A stretch of DNA of 64,000 bases, taken from Bacteroidales bacterium (lineage in GTDB: Bacteria; Bacteroidota; Bacteroidia; Bacteroidales; WCHB1-69). The translations under genes were made by a program, and so were the position numbers. The notes under the pieces are model-generated. The model was not told the DNA's origin, did not search any database, and was given only the letters and a program-made list of their open reading frames with translations. The DNA lies in contig JAFZKY010000037.1 of assembly GCA_017551725.1 (NCBI GenBank), positions 123,595-187,594 on the forward strand, in the 5' to 3' direction. Positions 22,379-29,779 of this stretch are shown in pieces (position 1 is the first letter of the stretch; the number at the start of each line of letters is the position of its first letter).

Positions 22379-22386
22379 TATTTTTG
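22379..22386 (+). promoter_or_regulatory. -7 promoter box (TATTTTTG) for nadD
   Basis: TAnnTTTG match 22 nt upstream of the ATG at 22408. Confidence 0.5.
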
Positions 22387-22407
22387 CACCTTTTAAAAAG
22401 AGACCCT

Positions 22408-22986
22408 ATGCGCAAAACCGGCCTTTACTTCGGATCCTTCAATCCCATCCATATCGGGCATTTGATTATTGCCGAATACATGCTGGAACATTCTGACCTC
22501 GAAGAGCTTTGGTTCGTGGTCTCGCCCCGCAACCCGCTGAAAGAAAAAGCCTCTTTGTTGGATGATCGCCAGCGACTCCATTTGGTAAACCTGGCCATTG
22601 AGGATGACGACCGATTCCGGGCCAGCGACGTGGAGTTTGCCCTACCCCAGCCCTCGTACACGTGCCACACTCTGGTGCATCTGGCGGAGAAATATCCCCA
22701 GCGGGAGTTCGCCCTCATCATGGGGGAAGACAACCTGCAGACCATCTACAAGTGGCTGAACTATGACTGGATTCTGGAAAACTACGACCTCTACGTCTAT
22801 CCCCGTCCGGGATATGACGCCGGAGAATACAAGGAAGGCCCTCGCATCCATTTCGTGGAGGCACCGTTAATCGAGCTGTCGTCCACCCTGATTCGGGAAA
22901 ACCTCCGGCAGAACAAGGCTGTACGCTACATGCTACCACCAAAAGTATGGCAATATCTGGACGAAATGGGATTTTATAAAACTTAA
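22408..22986 (+). CDS. nadD: nicotinate-nucleotide adenylyltransferase
   Basis: I prefer the ATG at 22408 (MRKTGLYFGSFNPIHIGHL, the HxGH nucleotidyltransferase motif) over the TTG at 22384, which overlaps the promoter box. The C-terminal part contains the SSTLIR motif. Confidence 0.9.
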   Translation: MRKTGLYFGSFNPIHIGHLIIAEYMLEHSDLEELWFVVSPRNPLKEKASLLDDRQRLHLVNLAIEDDDRFRASDVEFALPQPSYTCHTLVHLAEKYPQREFALIMGEDNLQTIYKWLNYDWILENYDLYVYPRPGYDAGEYKEGPRIHFVEAPLIELSSTLIRENLRQNKAVRYMLPPKVWQYLDEMGFYKT

Positions 22987-23056
22987 GACCAACGACCAGA
23001 GACTATAGACCGAGGACTTTACAAACATTATAAACCTTACAAACATTACAAACAAC
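22987..23056. repeat. 7-nt-phased tract (GAC-phase heptamers, then A/C-rich heptamers) abutting the nadD stop codon
   Basis: gaccaac gaccaga gactata gaccgag gacttta caaacat tataaac cttacaa acattac aaacaac. GAC recurs at 22987, 22994, 23001, 23008 and 23015. Confidence 0.65.
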
Positions 23057-23076
23057 CCTTCTTCATCCACACGATC

Positions 23077-24483
23077 ATGTCATTCAAACGCTATACCATC
23101 GAAGATCTGGAAATCCTCTCCGCCGGTGCGGAGGGCAAAGCCGTGGCCAAGCTGGACGGCCTCACCATTTTTGTCCCATACGCCGTACCCGACGACATTG
23201 TGGATGTGGAAATCTTCAAGAAAAAGCATCATTACGCCGAGGCCAACCTGCTGGCCGTAAAACAGCCCTCTCCGGACCGCGTGGTGCCTCCCTGCCCGCA
23301 CTTCGGCGTGTGCGGCGGCTGCAAATGGCAGATGCTCGACTATGCCAAACAGCTGGAATACAAACAGAAACAGGTAGAGGACAACTTCCGCCACCTCGGC
23401 AAATTTGAATACCCGGAACTTCGACCGATTTTGGGCTCGGAGAAACAATACTACTATCGCAACAAGCTGGAGTACACCTTCTCCAACATGCGGTGGCTTT
23501 CATACGCCGACATGGCCCGCATGAAGGCAGGCGAACCGTTCGAGATGCGCTGCGCCGGCTTCCACATCCCCGGCATGTTCGACAAGATCCTCGACATCGA
23601 CCACTGTTGGCTGCAGGCGGCCCCGAGCAACGACATCCGCCTGTTCCTCAAAGACTACGCCATGCGCAACGGCATCACCTTCTACGACCCGCGCGAACGC
23701 ACCGGCGTGCTGCGCAACCTCATCATCCGCACCGCCTCCACCGGCGACCTTATGGTGGTGATGATTGTCTCTGTGTTCAATGAGGATGTTGAAAAGATGC
23801 TGAACGCACTCGCCGGCCAGTTTCCGGAAATTACATCTTTAATATATATGGTCAACACAAAGGTGAACGACGCCGTCTTCGACCTGCCTTTCCATCTGTT
23901 CAAGGGCAACGACCACATCATGGAAAAGATGGAAGACCTCTACTTCAAGGTGGGGCCCAAATCGTTCTACCAGACCAACAGCGACCAGGCCTACGTCCTC
24001 TACAGTGTGGTGCGCGACTTCGCCGCCATCCAGCCCCACGAGGTAGTCTATGACCTCTTCACCGGCACGGGCACCATTGCCAATTTCGTCGCCCACCAGG
24101 CGAAAAAAGTGGTCGGGGTGGAGTACGTGGACTCCGCCGTGGACGATGCCCGCATCAACTGTGAGCGCAACCAGATACACAATGCGGAGTTTGTGGTGGG
24201 CGACATGGCCAAGATCTTCACCGACGACTTCATCGCGCAGCACGGTCGCCCGGATGTCATCATCACCGACCCGCCGCGCGCCGGCATGCACCCCAACGTA
24301 ATCCAGATGCTGGTCAAGCTGCGGGTGCCGCGCATCGTGTATGTGAGCTGCAATCCCGCCACGCAGGCCCGCGACCTCACCCTGCTGAACAGCACCTACA
24401 AGGTAACAGCCGTGCAGCCCGTGGACATGTTCCCACACACCCAACACGTGGAAAATGTGGTGCGGATGGAACTCAGGGGATAA
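23077..24483 (+). CDS. rlmD: 23S rRNA (uracil-C5)-methyltransferase RlmD/RumA family
   Basis: 468 aa with an N-terminal TRAM-like region. Fe-S cysteines CPHFGVCGGCKWQ, SAM motif DLFTGTGTI, catalytic DPPRAG and SCNPAT. Confidence 0.88.
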   Translation: MSFKRYTIEDLEILSAGAEGKAVAKLDGLTIFVPYAVPDDIVDVEIFKKKHHYAEANLLAVKQPSPDRVVPPCPHFGVCGGCKWQMLDYAKQLEYKQKQVEDNFRHLGKFEYPELRPILGSEKQYYYRNKLEYTFSNMRWLSYADMARMKAGEPFEMRCAGFHIPGMFDKILDIDHCWLQAAPSNDIRLFLKDYAMRNGITFYDPRERTGVLRNLIIRTASTGDLMVVMIVSVFNEDVEKMLNALAGQFPEITSLIYMVNTKVNDAVFDLPFHLFKGNDHIMEKMEDLYFKVGPKSFYQTNSDQAYVLYSVVRDFAAIQPHEVVYDLFTGTGTIANFVAHQAKKVVGVEYVDSAVDDARINCERNQIHNAEFVVGDMAKIFTDDFIAQHGRPDVIITDPPRAGMHPNVIQMLVKLRVPRIVYVSCNPATQARDLTLLNSTYKVTAVQPVDMFPHTQHVENVVRMELRG

Positions 24484-24552
24484 TCTCCTATCTTTTGCCG
24501 TATCGAATTTGTTTTCTTGAGCAAAAAATAGCACTAATCACTATTTTAGCTG

Positions 24553-25440
24553 TCACGGCCAGATTTGAGTGACACCACGATAGGTGATTTCCACATGCCC
24601 ATCCTCAAGAAGATTTGCTTCTGCCCCATTGGTTCCTTGGTCGTTCGTGACTTGCATTTCAATTCTCCCAGCTCGGAAGAAAGGGGAATACGTGAAAAAT
24701 CCGGCATAACTCTGCAAATGTTGAATCTCCGAAGATTCCTCATAATAAGTCATCCCAAACTCCACGGGTTCAATAATACGATATTGCATAACCGTTCGCT
24801 TCTGTAAACGGACCCCATTATAAGTAAAACTTGAACGAAACCCGAACAGGCCCTGTCCTGACAATGACAGCGAAGCACCCAATGAGAGTGGCCACAGACC
24901 ATTCTCGTTGGTCAGTGTCAAGTCCATGCGACAATCTGAGGAATCCTGCGCATCGCTGACAAATGTCCATGTGTGCGCATCCAAACATGTAATATACACG
25001 ACGGACCCGTCCATCTTCTCAATTGTCTGGTTGTACTGTTCGGGAACCGGCACGCAAGTCATCCTCATACAGGCACCCTGCTCATTCAGCGATTGGCCCT
25101 GCAGCATTTCCACCTCCAGGTAGCTATGCGACCAACGGGTGTCGGTAATCCGCCAATGCCGTTCACCGATGGTATCCAGTTTTATCGAATAATTGAGGAA
25201 CAACGATTTCAAAAGATTGGCCTGTTCGGCACCGGATGCCGCCAGCACCGCATTCATACGAAGGGCGGTTTCTATCGTTGTACCCGTCATATCCCGCATA
25301 CTACTGAACCACCCATTGTACATAAGCCTGCCTGTTTGCGTCTTGCCTTTCTCGCCAACCCCGAGGGTGCAGGCCGTCATGGCCAATGCCAGCATTACGT
25401 ATGCCATCCCTCTAACCCACTGTCTGGTCTGTTTTTTCAT
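24553..25440 (-). CDS. hypothetical lipoprotein
   Basis: I prefer the start MKKQTRQWVRGMAYVMLALAMTAC (lipobox, ATG at 25440). The 52-codon upstream extension in the ORF track overlaps the preceding gene. No recognisable domain. Confidence 0.6.
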   Translation of the reverse strand: MKKQTRQWVRGMAYVMLALAMTACTLGVGEKGKTQTGRLMYNGWFSSMRDMTGTTIETALRMNAVLAASGAEQANLLKSLFLNYSIKLDTIGERHWRITDTRWSHSYLEVEMLQGQSLNEQGACMRMTCVPVPEQYNQTIEKMDGSVVYITCLDAHTWTFVSDAQDSSDCRMDLTLTNENGLWPLSLGASLSLSGQGLFGFRSSFTYNGVRLQKRTVMQYRIIEPVEFGMTYYEESSEIQHLQSYAGFFTYSPFFRAGRIEMQVTNDQGTNGAEANLLEDGHVEITYRGVTQIWP

Positions 25441-25471
25441 ATTTTTATTATTTATAATTTGAAACAAGAAA

Positions 25472-27028
25472 CTAAAACTCATAACCGAAACCGGCGGAAA
25501 TGAGGCCCTTGAAGCCCGCGCCCAACTCCACATTGCCGAACCAGCCTTTCGCACCCGCCTTGACACCCAGCATCGTAACGTGGACGGCCCCCGCAAACGC
25601 AGTATAGTTTGTGGCGACTGGCTGCACCTGTTTTGAGGTGAAATTGCCTATCAGCAAGCCTCCTGACAATTCAGAATACAACGTCACATGTTTCCGGTTG
25701 AGATAGGAGAAACGCAGATCTGCCATCAAATCAAAAAAGGTATTGTGTTCGGATTGTCCTTTCACCCGCTTGTCCGTCAGCCGGTCGTAGTAATAGGCGT
25801 AAAATTCAGAAAAGTCAGCGGTGAGGCCCACCCAAAGCCACTTGTAGGCGCGGTAATGATAACTTAGGGAAATCACAGGCGTGTAACGGACCTTGCTGTA
25901 CGTGTCACTGGTCAAAGTCCAATTATAGGGATTGTATTCTTCTTGGCTTATTAGATATTTTTTGTATAGTTTTGGAAACCAATCAGAAAAAATGGTAAAC
26001 ATCACCAACGAGCTGTATTCGGACTGTAGGTTCGGGATGCCGACGTTGAACTGAAATTCATGGCGATGGAACGTCTTCTCGTCAGACCAGCCCGGCGACA
26101 CTTCATCATACCAGGGTACTTTATGGAACTCTTTCTCTTTATGCTTCTGGAACGTATGGATGTATGCAATCTGCGGATATATGTATTGGTTTTTAAAAGA
26201 GACTGTACCTTCCTCTACAACAACATCTTGTGTAGAATATGTGTAGCAGCCATGCCAAAACATCGCTGGTGACAGATTGGTCCCAAGTGTAAAACGAAGC
26301 AAGCCGTTGTTTTTCAGCTGGTAATAGAAGCCCAAATCCATCAGGAAGCCCGTGTTGATACGACGCTCGTTTTTTATTTGAGAATAATACTCTGTTTCTA
26401 TAGGATAAGAAAACGACTGATCATCGTACAACAAACCGACACTGCTGAACGAACCGCTGTTACTGTAAGGATAGGGGGTGCTGAAACGGGCCCCTATATC
26501 GGCCACGAGCCAGAATCGGGAATTGAACGGCATGTGAAATTCAAATTTCAAGGGGACGGAAATACCGAACATGGAGAAACGGAAATGAGCGGGCTCACCG
26601 ATATAAACCGCATCCTCATACCTGATGTTACAGGCATAATGGGAGCCGAGATTGATCCCTGCTGAAACACCGAAATATTTCGCGAAATGGTAGGAAAACT
26701 CCAACCCGCCCACATACCCACTGCCCGGCCGAGATTTTATAAGGCTTTTTTCGCCGTCAGAATTGATAAGTTCCGCCGGACTCATCAGCTGGTACTGGAA
26801 AACGTATCCTAAATGGAACCCCTTGAAAATCTCGGGCACGAAGGCGGTTGTTCGGGTGGGTGCAACGGGCGTATCCGGCTCCGCCACCATCGGATAGTAA
26901 ATCGTATCGTGCATGTAAACAGTATCATATACAATCTTTTCCTCTACAACGTAGATGGTGTCGCGCGCCTGCCCATGCAACTGCATACACATTAGAATCG
27001 ATAAAAGGAATAAAGAGGTTTTATGCAT
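25472..27028 (-). CDS. hypothetical outer-membrane beta-barrel protein with DT[VI]Y-repeat N-terminal extension
   Basis: 518 aa with a signal peptide (..MCMQLHGQA). The mature N-terminus is RDTIYVVEEKIVYDTVYMHDTIYYP. The body is aromatic/Gly-rich with alternating pattern, and the C-terminus is ..SAGFGYEF. Confidence 0.6.
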   Translation of the reverse strand: MHKTSLFLLSILMCMQLHGQARDTIYVVEEKIVYDTVYMHDTIYYPMVAEPDTPVAPTRTTAFVPEIFKGFHLGYVFQYQLMSPAELINSDGEKSLIKSRPGSGYVGGLEFSYHFAKYFGVSAGINLGSHYACNIRYEDAVYIGEPAHFRFSMFGISVPLKFEFHMPFNSRFWLVADIGARFSTPYPYSNSGSFSSVGLLYDDQSFSYPIETEYYSQIKNERRINTGFLMDLGFYYQLKNNGLLRFTLGTNLSPAMFWHGCYTYSTQDVVVEEGTVSFKNQYIYPQIAYIHTFQKHKEKEFHKVPWYDEVSPGWSDEKTFHRHEFQFNVGIPNLQSEYSSLVMFTIFSDWFPKLYKKYLISQEEYNPYNWTLTSDTYSKVRYTPVISLSYHYRAYKWLWVGLTADFSEFYAYYYDRLTDKRVKGQSEHNTFFDLMADLRFSYLNRKHVTLYSELSGGLLIGNFTSKQVQPVATNYTAFAGAVHVTMLGVKAGAKGWFGNVELGAGFKGLISAGFGYEF

Positions 27029-27076
27029 AGGATTTTAGTATGAAAGTTTCAAAGTAAAAATTGTAGATTCAACTGG

Positions 27077-27084
27077 CAAAGTTA
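27077..27084 (-). promoter_or_regulatory. -7 promoter box (TAACTTTG) upstream of the beta-barrel gene
   Basis: The reverse complement of caaagtta matches TAnnTTTG, 49 nt upstream of the start at 27028. Confidence 0.45.
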
Positions 27085-27091
27085 TAAAAAA

Positions 27092-28132
27092 TTATGGCAT
27101 TGACACGGGAACATACACCGTGTCATGGACCGTTTTCACCACGGTTTTATACACTGTATCACGAATATACACATATTGGGGTTCTGAAATCACGGCAGTG
27201 TCGGGGATAGGTGCAACGGAGTGGAATTTTCCACCAGACGGACGGTCGGAGTTCTTCCGCATCAGGATATCATTGGGTTCGGTTGTGCCGTCGCCAAATG
27301 TGGCCGTGTCGGCCGGCGTGCAGGCGGCAGCTGCTGCGGGTACGGACGGGCCAGCGGGCGACAAACCGGCAGCGGGCGGGAAAAGGCGCGTGAAGACGTA
27401 GCCCGCCACAAGACAGATAACGAATCCAACCGCCAACGCCTGGAAGAGGCCCTTAGCGGCCAACAGTACGGGAATTTTGGGAACAGAACCCCACGGAATG
27501 GACGCCATCTCGTAGGGCACTGCGGGTTCCACCGAATAATCCCGAAGGTTTCTGCGGCAGATATCATCCACAGCATGACCACGTTTGAAAATGAGGAAAA
27601 ATGGAATCATAAGCTTTATTGGTTTTTGTTTTTTACTGATCAGCAGGCGTTGCAGCTGCTGGCGGGCCAAGGCGAGATGCCGTTTGGAGGTTCGCTCGGC
27701 CATGGAAAGCGTTTCCGCAATTTCCCGATGACTGTAGTTTTCAAAGACATACAGGTTGAATACGGTACGCTGCACGACAGGCAGGGCGGCTATGGCATCC
27801 AAAATCTCCGACTGGGTGAAATCGTAACGTCCCAATTCCTCCTCATCCTCGGGAACAGTCTCCAAATCAGCAGTGGAAAGATCATCCAGTTGGACAAAAC
27901 ACTGTTTTTTTCGCAGATGCTGCAACACCGTATTCGTCGTGATGCGCATCATCCACCGGTCAAAACTGCCAATTCCCCTGAAGGACCCGGACTTTTCGAT
28001 AGCCAGCAAAAACGCCTCATGCGCCAAATCCTCCGCCAGAGAGGGATCCGTCACATACCGATGGCACAAGCCGATCATCTTCCCGATGTTCTGTCGGTAT
28101 TTCTTCGACCAAAAATCCTGTGTGTCTGTCAT
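27092..28132 (-). CDS. ECF-type sigma-70 factor fused to a transmembrane/periplasmic anti-sigma-like extension
   Basis: I prefer the start at MTDTQDFW (28132). Sigma region 2 is LAEDLAHEAFLLAIEK..FDRWMMRITTNTVLQHLRK. Region 4 is LPVVQRTVFNLYVFENYSHREIAETLSMAERTSKRHLALARQQL. A TM helix follows (LFQALAVGFVICLVAGYVFTRLF), then a Pro/Ala-rich linker and the tail YVYIRDTVYKTVVKTVHDTVYVPVSMP. Confidence 0.8.
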   Translation of the reverse strand: MTDTQDFWSKKYRQNIGKMIGLCHRYVTDPSLAEDLAHEAFLLAIEKSGSFRGIGSFDRWMMRITTNTVLQHLRKKQCFVQLDDLSTADLETVPEDEEELGRYDFTQSEILDAIAALPVVQRTVFNLYVFENYSHREIAETLSMAERTSKRHLALARQQLQRLLISKKQKPIKLMIPFFLIFKRGHAVDDICRRNLRDYSVEPAVPYEMASIPWGSVPKIPVLLAAKGLFQALAVGFVICLVAGYVFTRLFPPAAGLSPAGPSVPAAAAACTPADTATFGDGTTEPNDILMRKNSDRPSGGKFHSVAPIPDTAVISEPQYVYIRDTVYKTVVKTVHDTVYVPVSMP

Positions 28133-28223
28133 ACTCTTTAAGAGGATGCAAAAAAACAAAAAAGGGCAAAAAAAATAACAAATCTGTTTTCGACACCATT
28201 TTCTGCCTCTACCAACTTTTTTG

Positions 28224-28231
28224 TATCTTTG
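28224..28231 (+). promoter_or_regulatory. -7 promoter box (TATCTTTG) for hutH
   Basis: TAnnTTTG match 52 nt upstream of the ATG at 28283. Confidence 0.5.
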
Positions 28232-28282
28232 CCCGCTTAATTAACGTGTATTAATTTGTAATTATTATAATAGCATATCATT

Positions 28283-29779
28283 ATGACGAGACACAAGATT
28301 TCTACCAAATTCCTGAGCATTGAGCAGGTTGAGAAAATCGTCAACCGCAAACAGAAAATCGAATTATCGCAAGAGGCCATCGATGCCGTGCAGAAATGCC
28401 GCGCCTACCTGGACAAGAAAACCGACACGGAGAAGGAACCCATCTACGGGGTGACCACCGGCTTCGGTTCTTTGTGCAACCGCAGCATCTCCAAAGAGGA
28501 CCTCTCCACCCTGCAGCGTAACCTAGTGATCTCGCACGCGTGCGGCGTGGGCAACGAGGTGCCCCAGGACATCGTGCAACTGATGCTGCTGATGAAAATA
28601 CAATCGCTCTCGTACGGGCACTCCGGCGTGCAGCTGGCCACCATCCAACGATTAGTGGATTTCTACAACAAGGGGGTGTATCCCGTTGTCTATCAACAGG
28701 GTTCGCTCGGCGCCTCCGGCGACTTGGCCCCGCTGGCACACCTGTGTCTGCCGCTCATCGGCATGGGCGAGGTTTACTACAAAGGAAAGAAATATCCTGC
28801 CTCCGTCATCAACGAGAAGTTCGGATGGGAGCCCATCACGCTGCAATCCAAGGAGGGTCTGGCCCTGCTCAACGGCACGCAGTTCATGAGCTCGTATGCC
28901 GTATGGCTGCTCATCAAGGCCAAGAAGCTCTCCTGGATGGCCGACATCATCGCCGCCATCTCGCTGGATGCCTTCGACGGCCGCATTGAGCCCTTCAACC
29001 TGAACGTCCATTTCGTGCGCCCGCACGCCGGCCAGATTATCACCGCCTCCCATATTCTCCAACTTTTGGAAGGTTCCGAGATCATCCAACAACACAAGGA
29101 GCACGTGCAAGACCCCTACTCTTTCCGCTGCGTGCCGCAGGTTCACGGCGCCTCCAAGGACTCCATCCAACATGTTCAGGATGTGGTGGAAACGGAAATC
29201 AACTCCGTCACCGACAACCCGACCGTGTTCCCGGATGAGGACATCGTGGTCTCCGCCGGCAACTTCCACGGCCAGCCGCTGGCCCTGGTGCTCGACTTCC
29301 TCTCCATCGCCATGGCAGAGCTGGGCAACATCTCCGAACGCCGTATCTATCAACTGATTGCCGGCAAACGCGGACTGCCCTCCTTCCTGGTCACGAACCC
29401 GGGCCTCAACTCCGGCTTCATGATCCCGCAGTACGCTGCCGCCTCCATCGTGAACCAGAACAAGGCCTTCACGATGCCCTGCTCCACCGACTCCATCGAA
29501 TCGTCGCAAGGCCAAGAGGACCACGTGAGCATGGGTGCCAACGCCGCCACGAAGTGCTACCTGGTGGTCAACAACGTGGAGAATATCCTCGGCATCGAGC
29601 TCTTCAACGCCGCACAGGCCCTCGAATTCCGCCGCCCGCTCAAATCCTCCCCGTTCATCGAGGAGTTTGTGGCCGCCTACCGCGAATTTGTGCCCTTCGT
29701 GGAAAACGACACCTACATGCACGAGCTCATCCAGAAGTCCATCGACTTCGTGAACGGCGTGCGTATGATTATGGACTAA
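28283..29779 (+). CDS. hutH: histidine ammonia-lyase
   Basis: 498 aa. The MIO-forming motif GSLGASGDLAPLAHL is present, and the sequence looks like an aromatic amino acid lyase throughout. Confidence 0.93.
   Translation: MTRHKISTKFLSIEQVEKIVNRKQKIELSQEAIDAVQKCRAYLDKKTDTEKEPIYGVTTGFGSLCNRSISKEDLSTLQRNLVISHACGVGNEVPQDIVQLMLLMKIQSLSYGHSGVQLATIQRLVDFYNKGVYPVVYQQGSLGASGDLAPLAHLCLPLIGMGEVYYKGKKYPASVINEKFGWEPITLQSKEGLALLNGTQFMSSYAVWLLIKAKKLSWMADIIAAISLDAFDGRIEPFNLNVHFVRPHAGQIITASHILQLLEGSEIIQQHKEHVQDPYSFRCVPQVHGASKDSIQHVQDVVETEINSVTDNPTVFPDEDIVVSAGNFHGQPLALVLDFLSIAMAELGNISERRIYQLIAGKRGLPSFLVTNPGLNSGFMIPQYAAASIVNQNKAFTMPCSTDSIESSQGQEDHVSMGANAATKCYLVVNNVENILGIELFNAAQALEFRRPLKSSPFIEEFVAAYREFVPFVENDTYMHELIQKSIDFVNGVRMIMD

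Follow-up and report, generated by a model that had tools for sequence, protein, structure and literature searches.

Why should an extracytoplasmic function (ECF) sigma factor that appears to be held at the inner membrane end in a short repeated motif, and why should the same motif open the outer-membrane (OM) protein encoded by the next gene? This is the question raised by positions 24553-28132 of the stretch of DNA analysed here (hereafter, the window: 64,000 nucleotides of contig JAFZKY010000037.1, from a Bacteroidales bacterium), where three consecutive genes lie on the minus strand: (i) an ECF sigma factor fusion; (ii) a beta-barrel protein; and (iii) a lipoprotein. The coordinates and sequences given for all three genes in a preliminary description of this DNA were verified against the window. 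Judged by comparison with other genomes, the window motif appears to belong to a widespread Bacteroidota module, in which the tail of the sigma fusion and the N-terminal extension of the OM protein are very probably coupled in function. The two genes that carry the motif have the following features:

27092..28132, minus strand: ECF sigma fusion gene, 346 aa (open reading frame, Pfam and NCBIfam)
27902..28099, minus strand: Sigma-70 region 2, aa 12-77 (Pfam Sigma70_r2, PF04542, E 2.2e-13; predicted local distance difference test score, pLDDT, >90)
27653..27808, minus strand: Sigma-70 region 4_2, aa 109-160 (Pfam Sigma70_r4_2, PF08281, E 1.7e-14; pLDDT >90)
27524..27619, minus strand: hydrophobic stretch IKLMIPFFLIF (aa 172-182), then predicted cytoplasmic helix HAVDDICRRNLRDYSVEP (aa 187-203)
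27392..27448, minus strand: predicted inner-membrane transmembrane (TM) helix, core aa 229-247, LFQALAVGFVICLVAGYVF (hydropathy)
27173..27367, minus strand: disordered, predicted periplasmic tether, aa 256-320 (pLDDT <50)
27104..27166, minus strand: C-terminal hexad tail IRDTVYKTVVKTVHDTVYVPV, aa 323-343 (sequence, motif search)
27077..27084, minus strand: TAACTTTG box in the 63-nt spacer, putative promoter element (read from the sequence)
25472..27028, minus strand: outer-membrane beta-barrel protein gene, 518 aa (open reading frame; C-terminus ...GFGYEF)
26966..27028, minus strand: barrel signal peptide, aa 1-21, MHKTSLFLLSILMCMQLHGQA (sequence; AlphaFold2 helix 2-18; predicted cleavage site)
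26888..26965, minus strand: N-terminal hexad extension RDTIYVVEEKIVYDTVYMHDTIYYPM, aa 22-47 (conserved in barrel homologues)
25475..26821, minus strand: beta-barrel body, strands at aa 70-291 and aa 323-517 (AlphaFold2 secondary structure)

The shared pattern is a six-residue (hexad) repeat. The C-terminal end of the sigma fusion reads IRDTVYKTVVKTVHDTVYVPVSMP, with the hexads DTVYKT-VVKTVH-DTVYVP, while the mature barrel protein begins RDTIYVVEEKIVYDTVYMHDTIYYP, with the hexads DTIYVV-EEKIVY-DTVYMH-DTIYYP. In the six-frame translation of the whole 64 kb there are five occurrences of DT[VI]Y, and since all five sit in these two segments, the sharing of the motif goes beyond chance. Among 66 sources, moreover, clusters of the repeat are found almost only at the tail or N-terminal positions of paired genes. 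A chance or low-complexity motif, common in the genome, would suit segments which are as short and compositionally simple (V, T, D, Y) as these, and the preliminary description had itself named such a motif as grounds for giving up the proposed link. Nevertheless, this reading is refuted by the six-frame count and by the clustering in the 66 sources, and its probability is practically negligible.

When the hexads of the window are aligned, 10 of 23 residues are identical, with a nucleotide identity of only 49%, and the codons of the identical residues differ in every case (10/10). A DNA repeat linking the two segments was looked for in the window and none was found. Recent duplication or gene conversion was rejected on these two grounds as the source of the likeness, and, as all ten shared residues use different codons, the resemblance appears to be maintained by selection on the protein. 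In the AlphaFold2 (AF2) monomer models of the sigma fusion (built from a 118-sequence alignment) and of the barrel, both motif segments have low confidence and almost no secondary structure, a result best taken as neutral: it would fit folding on binding and, equally, plain disorder.

The association was followed in two surveys. In the barrel-anchored survey, one genome per species was scanned with a pipeline of open reading frame (ORF) calling, phmmer searches and motif matching, which yielded 55 loci, all from metagenome-assembled genomes (MAGs) of ruminant-gut Bacteroidales. Tails were called by motif plus inspection; those of L048 and L050 (RETVIVRDTDIVKDTIYL) and most of the basic VVVKK..xDT tails were assigned by inspection. 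For nearly all barrels with an N-terminal repeat in these 55 loci, the gene immediately upstream, at -31 to +65 nt, is an ORF with a repeat tail, which corresponds either to a sigma fusion of 335-441 aa or to a TM protein of 175-211 aa. The exceptions are L038, L041 (contig edge), L039 (sigma mostly deleted) and L014 (no sigma upstream). By contrast, none of the approximately 17 repeat-less barrels of this survey has a tail-bearing neighbour and, hence, it is the N-terminal repeat, not the barrel itself, that tracks with the sigma factor.

From the other side, a full scan of 1.84 billion representative sequences with the sigma fusion returned 180 at E <= 1e-30, and most representatives of 320-400 aa end roughly in PVV[IV]KKx[IV][IV]x[RK]xT[VI][VI][IV][RK]DT[VIL]. 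A sigma-anchored survey, in which metagenomes were scanned with an alignment of 58 representatives, gave 80 loci. Here, 46 tail-type fusions have downstream DNA, and after about 45 of them comes a secreted protein with the mature N-terminal sequence xDT[LIV]YIYEE[EV][IV]xYDT[LIV]Y, the spacing usually going from an overlap to ~100 nt; the partner lies two genes away in L137 and is absent in L088. Fusions with other C-terminal domains never have such a neighbour (0 of ~20). The partners measure 234-236, 323-352 or 554-562 aa and, of the ten printed, six end in phenylalanine; that of L127 has a significant match to OMP_b-brl_2 (45 bits), and the other partners tested have no Pfam match.

Taking both surveys together, separate sigma and barrel genes (that is, the split form) are kept in more than 80 loci. 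A profile search gave at least 1,113 protein matches with E <= 1e-10, some of them from named species of Flavobacterium. The pair is present in a cultured species, Flavobacterium arsenatis, where a 365-aa fusion ending in KVVVIKKQIIKKDTVYVTK overlaps a 302-aa protein starting ...SKKIDTVYVYEEIIIRDTIFIEKP. All named sources of the module are Bacteroidota, and the association spans Bacteroidia and Flavobacteriia. The window pair has the two parts by which the module is defined: a C-terminal alternating strand motif (...[RK]DT[VIL]...) and, immediately downstream, a secreted protein starting with DT[LIV]Y hexads. One contig of 2.5 Mb (L148, 5001-9164) holds two sigma-fusion/partner modules in tandem; their tails are basic and without DT (...VVIRKQVVLDEN..., ...QVVIKKKVYIKR), and their partners keep the DT hexads.

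The specific link between the tail and the N-terminal extension of the neighbouring barrel, which was the core of the preliminary description, is thus borne out, inasmuch as the pairing is kept across lineages with differing genomic contexts. The co-occurrence of the motif in sigma-barrel pairs across Bacteroidota, which had been suggested as a check, was found in both surveys and in F. arsenatis; homologous fusions lacking both the tail motif and the barrel neighbour, which would have spoken against the link, were not the pattern found, both being kept in homologues. It could still be argued that the two segments are independent sorting or stability signals, the extension being a signal for periplasmic handling and the tail a C-terminal degron or stabiliser, which co-occur only because they share an operon. 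The presence of the extension on partners of several architectures (234 aa, ~300-350 aa and 520-590 aa) and the disorder of both segments in the monomer models are in keeping with this. However, the extension is found almost only on genes right after a tail-bearing gene and is missing from paralogous barrels elsewhere in the same genomes, and no such neighbour is seen where the periplasmic domain of a sigma fusion is of another kind; independent signals are, in consequence, unlikely.

What, then, is the protein that carries the tail? From the N- to the C-terminus, the sigma fusion consists of sigma2, sigma4, a short hydrophobic stretch, a juxtamembrane helix, a TM helix, a disordered linker and the hexad tail. 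It is an ECF (group 4) sigma-70 factor, with regions 2 and 4 only in a core of ~170 aa; NCBIfam TIGR02937 (sigma70-ECF) matches it with 76.1 bits (cut-off 42.9). In the AF2 model, only sigma2 and sigma4 are confident (pLDDT >90), and values are below 50 throughout the TM segment and everything C-terminal of it. The stretch at aa 229-247 (hydropathy 2.28) is the sole 19-aa window above 1.4. These domains and the single TM peak agree with the earlier description of the sigma factor as a one-polypeptide, membrane-tethered ECF factor. In the tether, P, A, S, T and G account for 37 of 65 residues (57%), and both its length and its sequence differ between homologues. The juxtamembrane helix, which begins HAVDDICRR, has five residues (D189, C192, R193, L196 and P203) that are invariant or nearly so in the alignment of 118 homologues; AF2 places a helix at aa 187-195 with moderate confidence. 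On this conservation, the region is a candidate for a built-in anti-sigma or sigma-contact element.

A separate gene for the TM-tail part (175-211 aa) exists in nine loci (L008, L015-L017, L019, L021, L022, L058 and L061). A stand-alone sigma factor lies upstream in eight of them, and none was detected within the range searched for the TM-tail/partner pair of L061. In L008 (GCA_024686335.1), for instance, there are a stand-alone 174-aa sigma factor, two small lipoproteins and a 182-aa single-pass protein ending in VVVKTVVEKRDTVHIKETITIKDTVYVP, whose gene overlaps that of a 550-aa barrel starting with RDTVYVTETKIVYDTIVQRDTLFLHDTLHL. The unfused TM-tail proteins are colinear with the C-terminal half of the fusions: xIDRLFxxGxS..P, a TM segment, a variable linker and the tail. 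Since the fused segment is homologous to a separately encoded single-TM protein elsewhere, the window protein appears to be an ECF sigma factor fused to an anti-sigma-like tether. The preliminary term of a sigma "fusion" can therefore be kept as regards the single polypeptide and is amended as regards the fused part, which has a separate single-TM homologue in other genomes. The same homologues bear on topology: as the unfused ones have a K/R-rich N-terminus and one TM segment, and as the extra hydrophobic stretch of the fusions is only 11 residues long, the tail is taken as periplasmic.

The unfused loci show some further variations. Between the stand-alone sigma factor and the TM-tail gene there may be one to four paralogous small lipoproteins (L008, 5449-6456; L017, 288-2628; L016, 6815-7471) of ~160-170 aa, with the pattern C..PEK..L.GTWQW..TSGGIAG... 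and no Pfam family. In two loci (L019, 8001-10629; L017, 3001-5146), another gene that has N-terminal DTxY hexads comes after the first partner. It encodes a barrel homologue of half size, with 330 aa in L019 and truncated by the end of the contig in L017; one tail may thus serve two extension-bearing proteins in these loci. In L061 (15501-17066, minus strand), the TM-tail gene is followed directly by a 308-aa half-size partner.

Among the fused relatives, HDTVYKTVVKVVHDTVY is retained as the C-terminal sequence of the sigma homologues with ~50% identity (P0004-P0015). A gene of this kind in L001-L003 overlaps by 32 nt a gene for a barrel of 532-536 aa that starts with ARDTIYIHEERIVYDTVYLHDTIYQF, and the flanking genes differ from those of the window; in most other lineages, the overlap between the sigma or TM-tail gene and the barrel gene is 3-31 nt. 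Remoter sigma homologues resemble these in the sigma domain, in the juxtamembrane helix and in the TM segment, but periplasmic domains of other kinds make up their C-terminal ends (WG_beta_rep, DUF2807 or a "...KYGDKGKNGAVEI" module). Among 58 diverse representatives of the family that were aligned, D325 is invariant and T326 nearly so, which makes them as conserved as core sigma residues.

Several loci illustrate how the parts are rearranged. (i) L004-L006 (6001-7341) are syntenic with window positions 22384-29779, with histidine ammonia-lyase (hutH), the sigma fusion, a tRNA U5-methyltransferase and nadD, and have neither barrel nor lipoprotein; their sigma fusion P0016 (446 aa) carries PDTVYKTVVKVVHDTIIK in mid-protein, after which come a linker rich in Gly and a domain weakly similar to TonB_C (17.8 bits, under the cut-off). 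This synteny with a different C-terminal end suggests that the periplasmic output end of the sigma factor has been swapped at a fixed chromosomal site. (ii) L066 (1039-2085) encodes P0015, a tail-bearing sigma factor (tail RDTIIKTVVKVVHDTVYL) with no adjacent barrel, and L014 (8001-9530) encodes a motif-bearing barrel (N-terminus RDTIYIREEKIVYDTVYVHDTIYQP) and a lipoprotein, with no adjacent sigma factor. Each is ~50% identical to the corresponding window protein, and they could be an unlinked cognate pair. (iii) In L039 (7497-9254), the sigma gene is nearly all deleted and what is left of sigma region 2 (MERADTCRATGNFLAWLMRI) runs in frame into the barrel signal peptide, apparently a natural "sigma-less" derivative of the module. 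(iv) In L007 (5836-9402), two sigma fusions are divergently transcribed: one is of the tail type, with its barrel partner, and the other has WG_beta_rep at its end, with a gene for a secreted DUF2807 protein after it, so that other members of the sigma-fusion family may have dedicated downstream partners too.

A 600-aa representative, P0369, deserves separate treatment. In a single ORF, the sigma-TM-linker-hexad tail is joined to the post-hexad region of a partner plus a small barrel, with one set of hexads only. It is either a genuine fusion similar to Dma3 (a one-chain system compared below), apparently formed when the DNA between the two repeats was deleted, or an artefact of assembly. As a covalent sigma-TM-linker-tail-barrel fusion within the same family, it argues, in the manner of a "Rosetta stone", that the split parts act together.

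Could the repeats be merely an evolutionary relic, left from the fission of a Dma3-like ancestor or from duplication, with no present interaction and the barrel just one more member of the regulon? Fused (P0369, Dma3) and split forms do both occur and, in the window, the sigma and barrel genes share one reading frame. Two TAA stops lie between them and, with frames and overlaps varying among other lineages, read-through or frameshifting that would join both proteins was ruled out. Against the relic stand the protein-level conservation despite complete synonymous divergence, the invariant or nearly invariant DT of the tail in distant family members, the extent of the association over Bacteroidia and Flavobacteriia, the covarying charges described below and the fact that motif-less barrels have no sigma neighbour. 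A relic is, on the whole, very unlikely.

The next question is whether the tail imitates the extension or complements it, and this was addressed with 41 hand-curated tail/extension pairs, the extension being its first 20 residues. Within the window clade, both segments are indeed alike (best ungapped 12-mer score of 33 vs 13.9 +/- 5.6 for shuffles). In the rumen clade with 234-aa partners, however, the scores are 7-17, i.e., background, and in many lineages a basic tail (PVVVKKxxRxxxxVVIxDT) is found with a mutually dissimilar, acidic extension (DTLYIYEEEIxYDTLY). A net positive tail is found in 34 of the 41 pairs (mean +2.5) and a net negative extension in 36 (mean -2.7); these charges are anticorrelated (Spearman rho -0.74, p 2.5e-8, with no phylogenetic correction), and the clades with a positive extension (L029-type and L048-type) have the least positive tails. 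The conserved feature thus appears to be a strand-prone tail which faces an oppositely charged, strand-prone DTxY extension, not the identity of the motif.

These data separate two possibilities that the preliminary description had left side by side. According to the first, the tail and the extension pair with each other. According to the second, each binds the same third component (e.g., a periplasmic chaperone or protease, BAM or peptidoglycan), the tail being a decoy that reports the occupancy of this component by the barrel. A common partner would account for the similarity of the two segments in the window clade and several others (33 vs 13.9 +/- 5.6), as well as for the tail-bearing sigma factors without an adjacent barrel. 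It is at odds, though, with the dissimilarity of tail and extension in many lineages, with their opposite and covarying charges, with the strict adjacency and overlap of the genes and with the existence of covalent fusions, and is considered rather unlikely. Opposite, covarying charge without conserved likeness favours direct heterotypic pairing over competition for one site. Consequently, of the earlier claims, pairing stands as the favoured option and competition is disfavoured; "mimicry" of the barrel N-terminus by the tail, as a conserved feature, has to be given up, and the covariation that had been proposed as a check on sigma-barrel pairs was found in the form of charge.

The locus would, then, encode a signalling module of two polypeptides that acts across the envelope. 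Its ECF sigma domain would stay in the cytoplasm, covalently held at the inner membrane by a homologue of the small, single-pass, anti-sigma-like protein; the disordered linker would span the periplasm and end in the beta-strand-forming hexad tail, and the OM barrel would present the matching hexad extension at its mature N-terminus. Tail and extension would pair in the periplasm as an intermolecular beta-sheet, aided by their opposite charge, and this pairing would recreate non-covalently the one-chain architecture of the Dma proteins: anti-sigma, TM helix, tether and OM barrel (in Dma3, the sigma factor too). While paired, the tail would be shielded and the sigma factor would remain membrane-bound and inactive. 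If the barrel were missing, misassembled or perturbed, the tail would be exposed, and the sigma factor would be freed in two steps, the first a periplasmic C-terminal or site-1 proteolysis and the second a cleavage within the membrane. Precedents for such proteolysis are IutY (PMC5411451) and FoxR (PMC11637429) of Pseudomonas. Taken as a whole, pairing plus proteolysis is the explanation that we consider reasonably probable.

Several observations weigh against this model. In the monomer models, both segments are of low confidence. In many partners, the extension and the barrel are separated by a second segment that resembles a signal peptide, which the proposed topology does not account for. 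This second segment (e.g., MDSIKKYGLAGLIILGLNAMSPA or MKKLNFFGVVFLAFQTMVLSQT) lies ~100 aa past the first signal peptide, after the hexads and a short helical region; it was seen in L007 (4011-5771, minus strand), in the L029-L064 barrels and in the L078, L097 and L099 partners, and some database entries start at an internal Met. Likewise, the fusions contain the extra hydrophobic stretch at aa 172-182, missing from the unfused homologues; a membrane-spanning role for this stretch would put the tail in the cytoplasm. Tail-bearing sigma fusions without an adjacent barrel exist (P0015, L088 and P0016/P0017, the last two with the hexads in mid-protein, ahead of the weak TonB_C-like domain), and so does a motif-bearing barrel without an adjacent sigma factor (L014). 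Finally, charge complementarity is weak or absent in the L029-type and L048-type clades and amounts to only about +1 vs -2 in the window clade. The pairs are, besides, not independent in phylogenetic terms, which makes the statistics descriptive.

A broader proposal goes beyond the window: a Bacteroidota-wide membrane wiring in which a tethered sigma factor (or a separate tether) is coupled to diverse OM proteins by a charge-complementary beta-zipper, with release on absence or perturbation of the OM protein and with interconverting split and fused forms. It is put forward tentatively, the chances being slightly against it in this full form. In any case, the finding is more general than the window alone suggested. 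It points to a likely regulatory logic for many unannotated ECF sigma fusions and "hypothetical" OM proteins of gut and rumen Bacteroidales, and raises the idea of a portable trans-periplasmic "Velcro" by which OM events could be connected with transcription. As a natural two-piece system with a defined pair of putative contact motifs of ~20 residues, it would make the coupling step between OM and transcription directly testable.

The rest of the locus can be described briefly. The barrel gene starts 63 nt 3' of the sigma stop, and the TAACTTTG box in this spacer fits TAnnTTTG, the -7 promoter consensus of Bacteroidetes. For the barrel protein, a 100% identical sequence is encoded in a "Bacteroidales bacterium" MAG from the rumen. 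The barrel has an all-beta AF2 model, with a mean pLDDT of 76 and values below 50 in the N-terminal extension (aa 19-60), and its match to Pfam OMP_b-brl_2 (PF13568) is weak (19.6 bits, under the 27-bit cut-off). Foldseek against the PDB gave only local matches to 8-stranded barrels (OmpW, OprG and OmpA; target TM-score ~0.6, ~230 columns). Since these matches span only ~230 columns, and half-size barrel homologues (308-330 aa) agree with this, the body of ~450 aa is probably composed of two small barrels in tandem. The third gene is as follows:

24553..25440, minus strand: lipoprotein gene (MKKQT...LAMTAC), 295 aa, 31 nt 3' of the barrel gene

The lipoprotein has no Pfam or NCBIfam match. Its homologues follow most of the ~17 repeat-less barrels, which have no sigma neighbour, and no lipoprotein follows the barrel in L001 and L003. 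As it accompanies barrels without the motif and without a sigma neighbour, it appears to be a partner of the barrel family, and a role as a component of the sigma link was rejected. The three-gene layout reported earlier, with the lipoprotein 31 nt on, is correct.

How does the module relate to known systems? A first group of relatives comprises FecA-FecR-FecI and FoxA-FoxR-FoxI, in which an OM barrel has an N-terminal periplasmic extension that contacts the C-terminal end of the ECF sigma regulator in the inner membrane, as is proposed here. In Fox signalling, the N-terminal domain of the receptor binds the anti-sigma factor's C-terminus, shielding it from Prc until the signal arrives (PMC11637429). 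There, however, the contacts are folded domains, whereas the window module has short repeats and other domain families: the window barrel has no match to Plug, TonB_dep_Rec or STN in Pfam and NCBIfam, and the sigma fusion has none to FecR or DUF4974 in Pfam (E up to 0.1). The comparison with FecA/FecR made in the preliminary description is, therefore, fair as a functional analogy.

A second relative is the IutY/IutA system of Pseudomonas putida, where a sigma/anti-sigma hybrid is processed by Prc and RseP so that the sigma factor is freed (PMC5411451). As in the window, a cytosolic ECF sigma factor, a single TM segment and a periplasmic part form one chain, encoded beside an OM receptor or protein. 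The match is at the level of architecture, and no homology of the periplasmic part is claimed: IutY has a folded FecR-type anti-sigma domain and works with a TonB-dependent transducer, while the window fusion has a disordered linker and a 20-aa tail. On domain content, the window module does not appear to be a member of the FecIRA-type or IutY families.

In more general terms, the ECF classification 2.0 (PMC7826278) includes 19 groups with a fused C-terminal extension and no separate anti-sigma gene, two traits shared by the window fusion; its main text, the part considered here, describes no group that combines a single TM segment, a disordered linker, a C-terminal strand motif and a matched OM protein partner. 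No description of the split arrangement or of the hexad motifs was found in the searchable literature.

The closest likeness is to the Dma family of Bacteroidota (Pardue et al., 2024; PMC10927553), whose members unite in one chain an anti-sigma N-terminus that sequesters the cognate sigma factor, an inner-membrane helix, a disordered tether and an 8-stranded OMP_b-brl_2 barrel (the Pfam family of the Dma1 barrel); their sigma factors are assigned to ECF21, and in Dma3 (BT_2778) the ECF sigma factor is also fused at the N-terminus (PMC10927553). No named B. thetaiotaomicron protein is among the best matches listed in the profile and representative searches. The two systems share the phylum, an N-terminal part in the cytoplasm that controls (in the window, would control) the sigma factor, a single inner-membrane helix, a tether that is long and disordered, and an OM barrel (OMP_b-brl_2 in Dma; a match under the cut-off in the window), and the window module has all the elements of Dma3 in the same order, with the sigma factor fused N-terminally in both. 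The window fusion itself has the inner-membrane helix and the long disordered tether (one hydropathy peak, linker pLDDT <50); the OM barrel, by contrast, is encoded by a separate gene. Three differences can be distinguished: (i) the window chain is cut between tether and barrel, the barrel gene having its own ATG and signal peptide; (ii) a hexad beta-strand motif lies on each side of this cut; and (iii) the window barrel has ~450 aa and is probably two barrels, whereas Dma has one 8-stranded barrel. By analogy of architecture, the module is best read as a non-covalent, split relative of the Dma family: the kind of control, that of an ECF sigma factor through a Dma-type or cell-surface-signalling arrangement, is known, and what is new is its non-covalent, split version.

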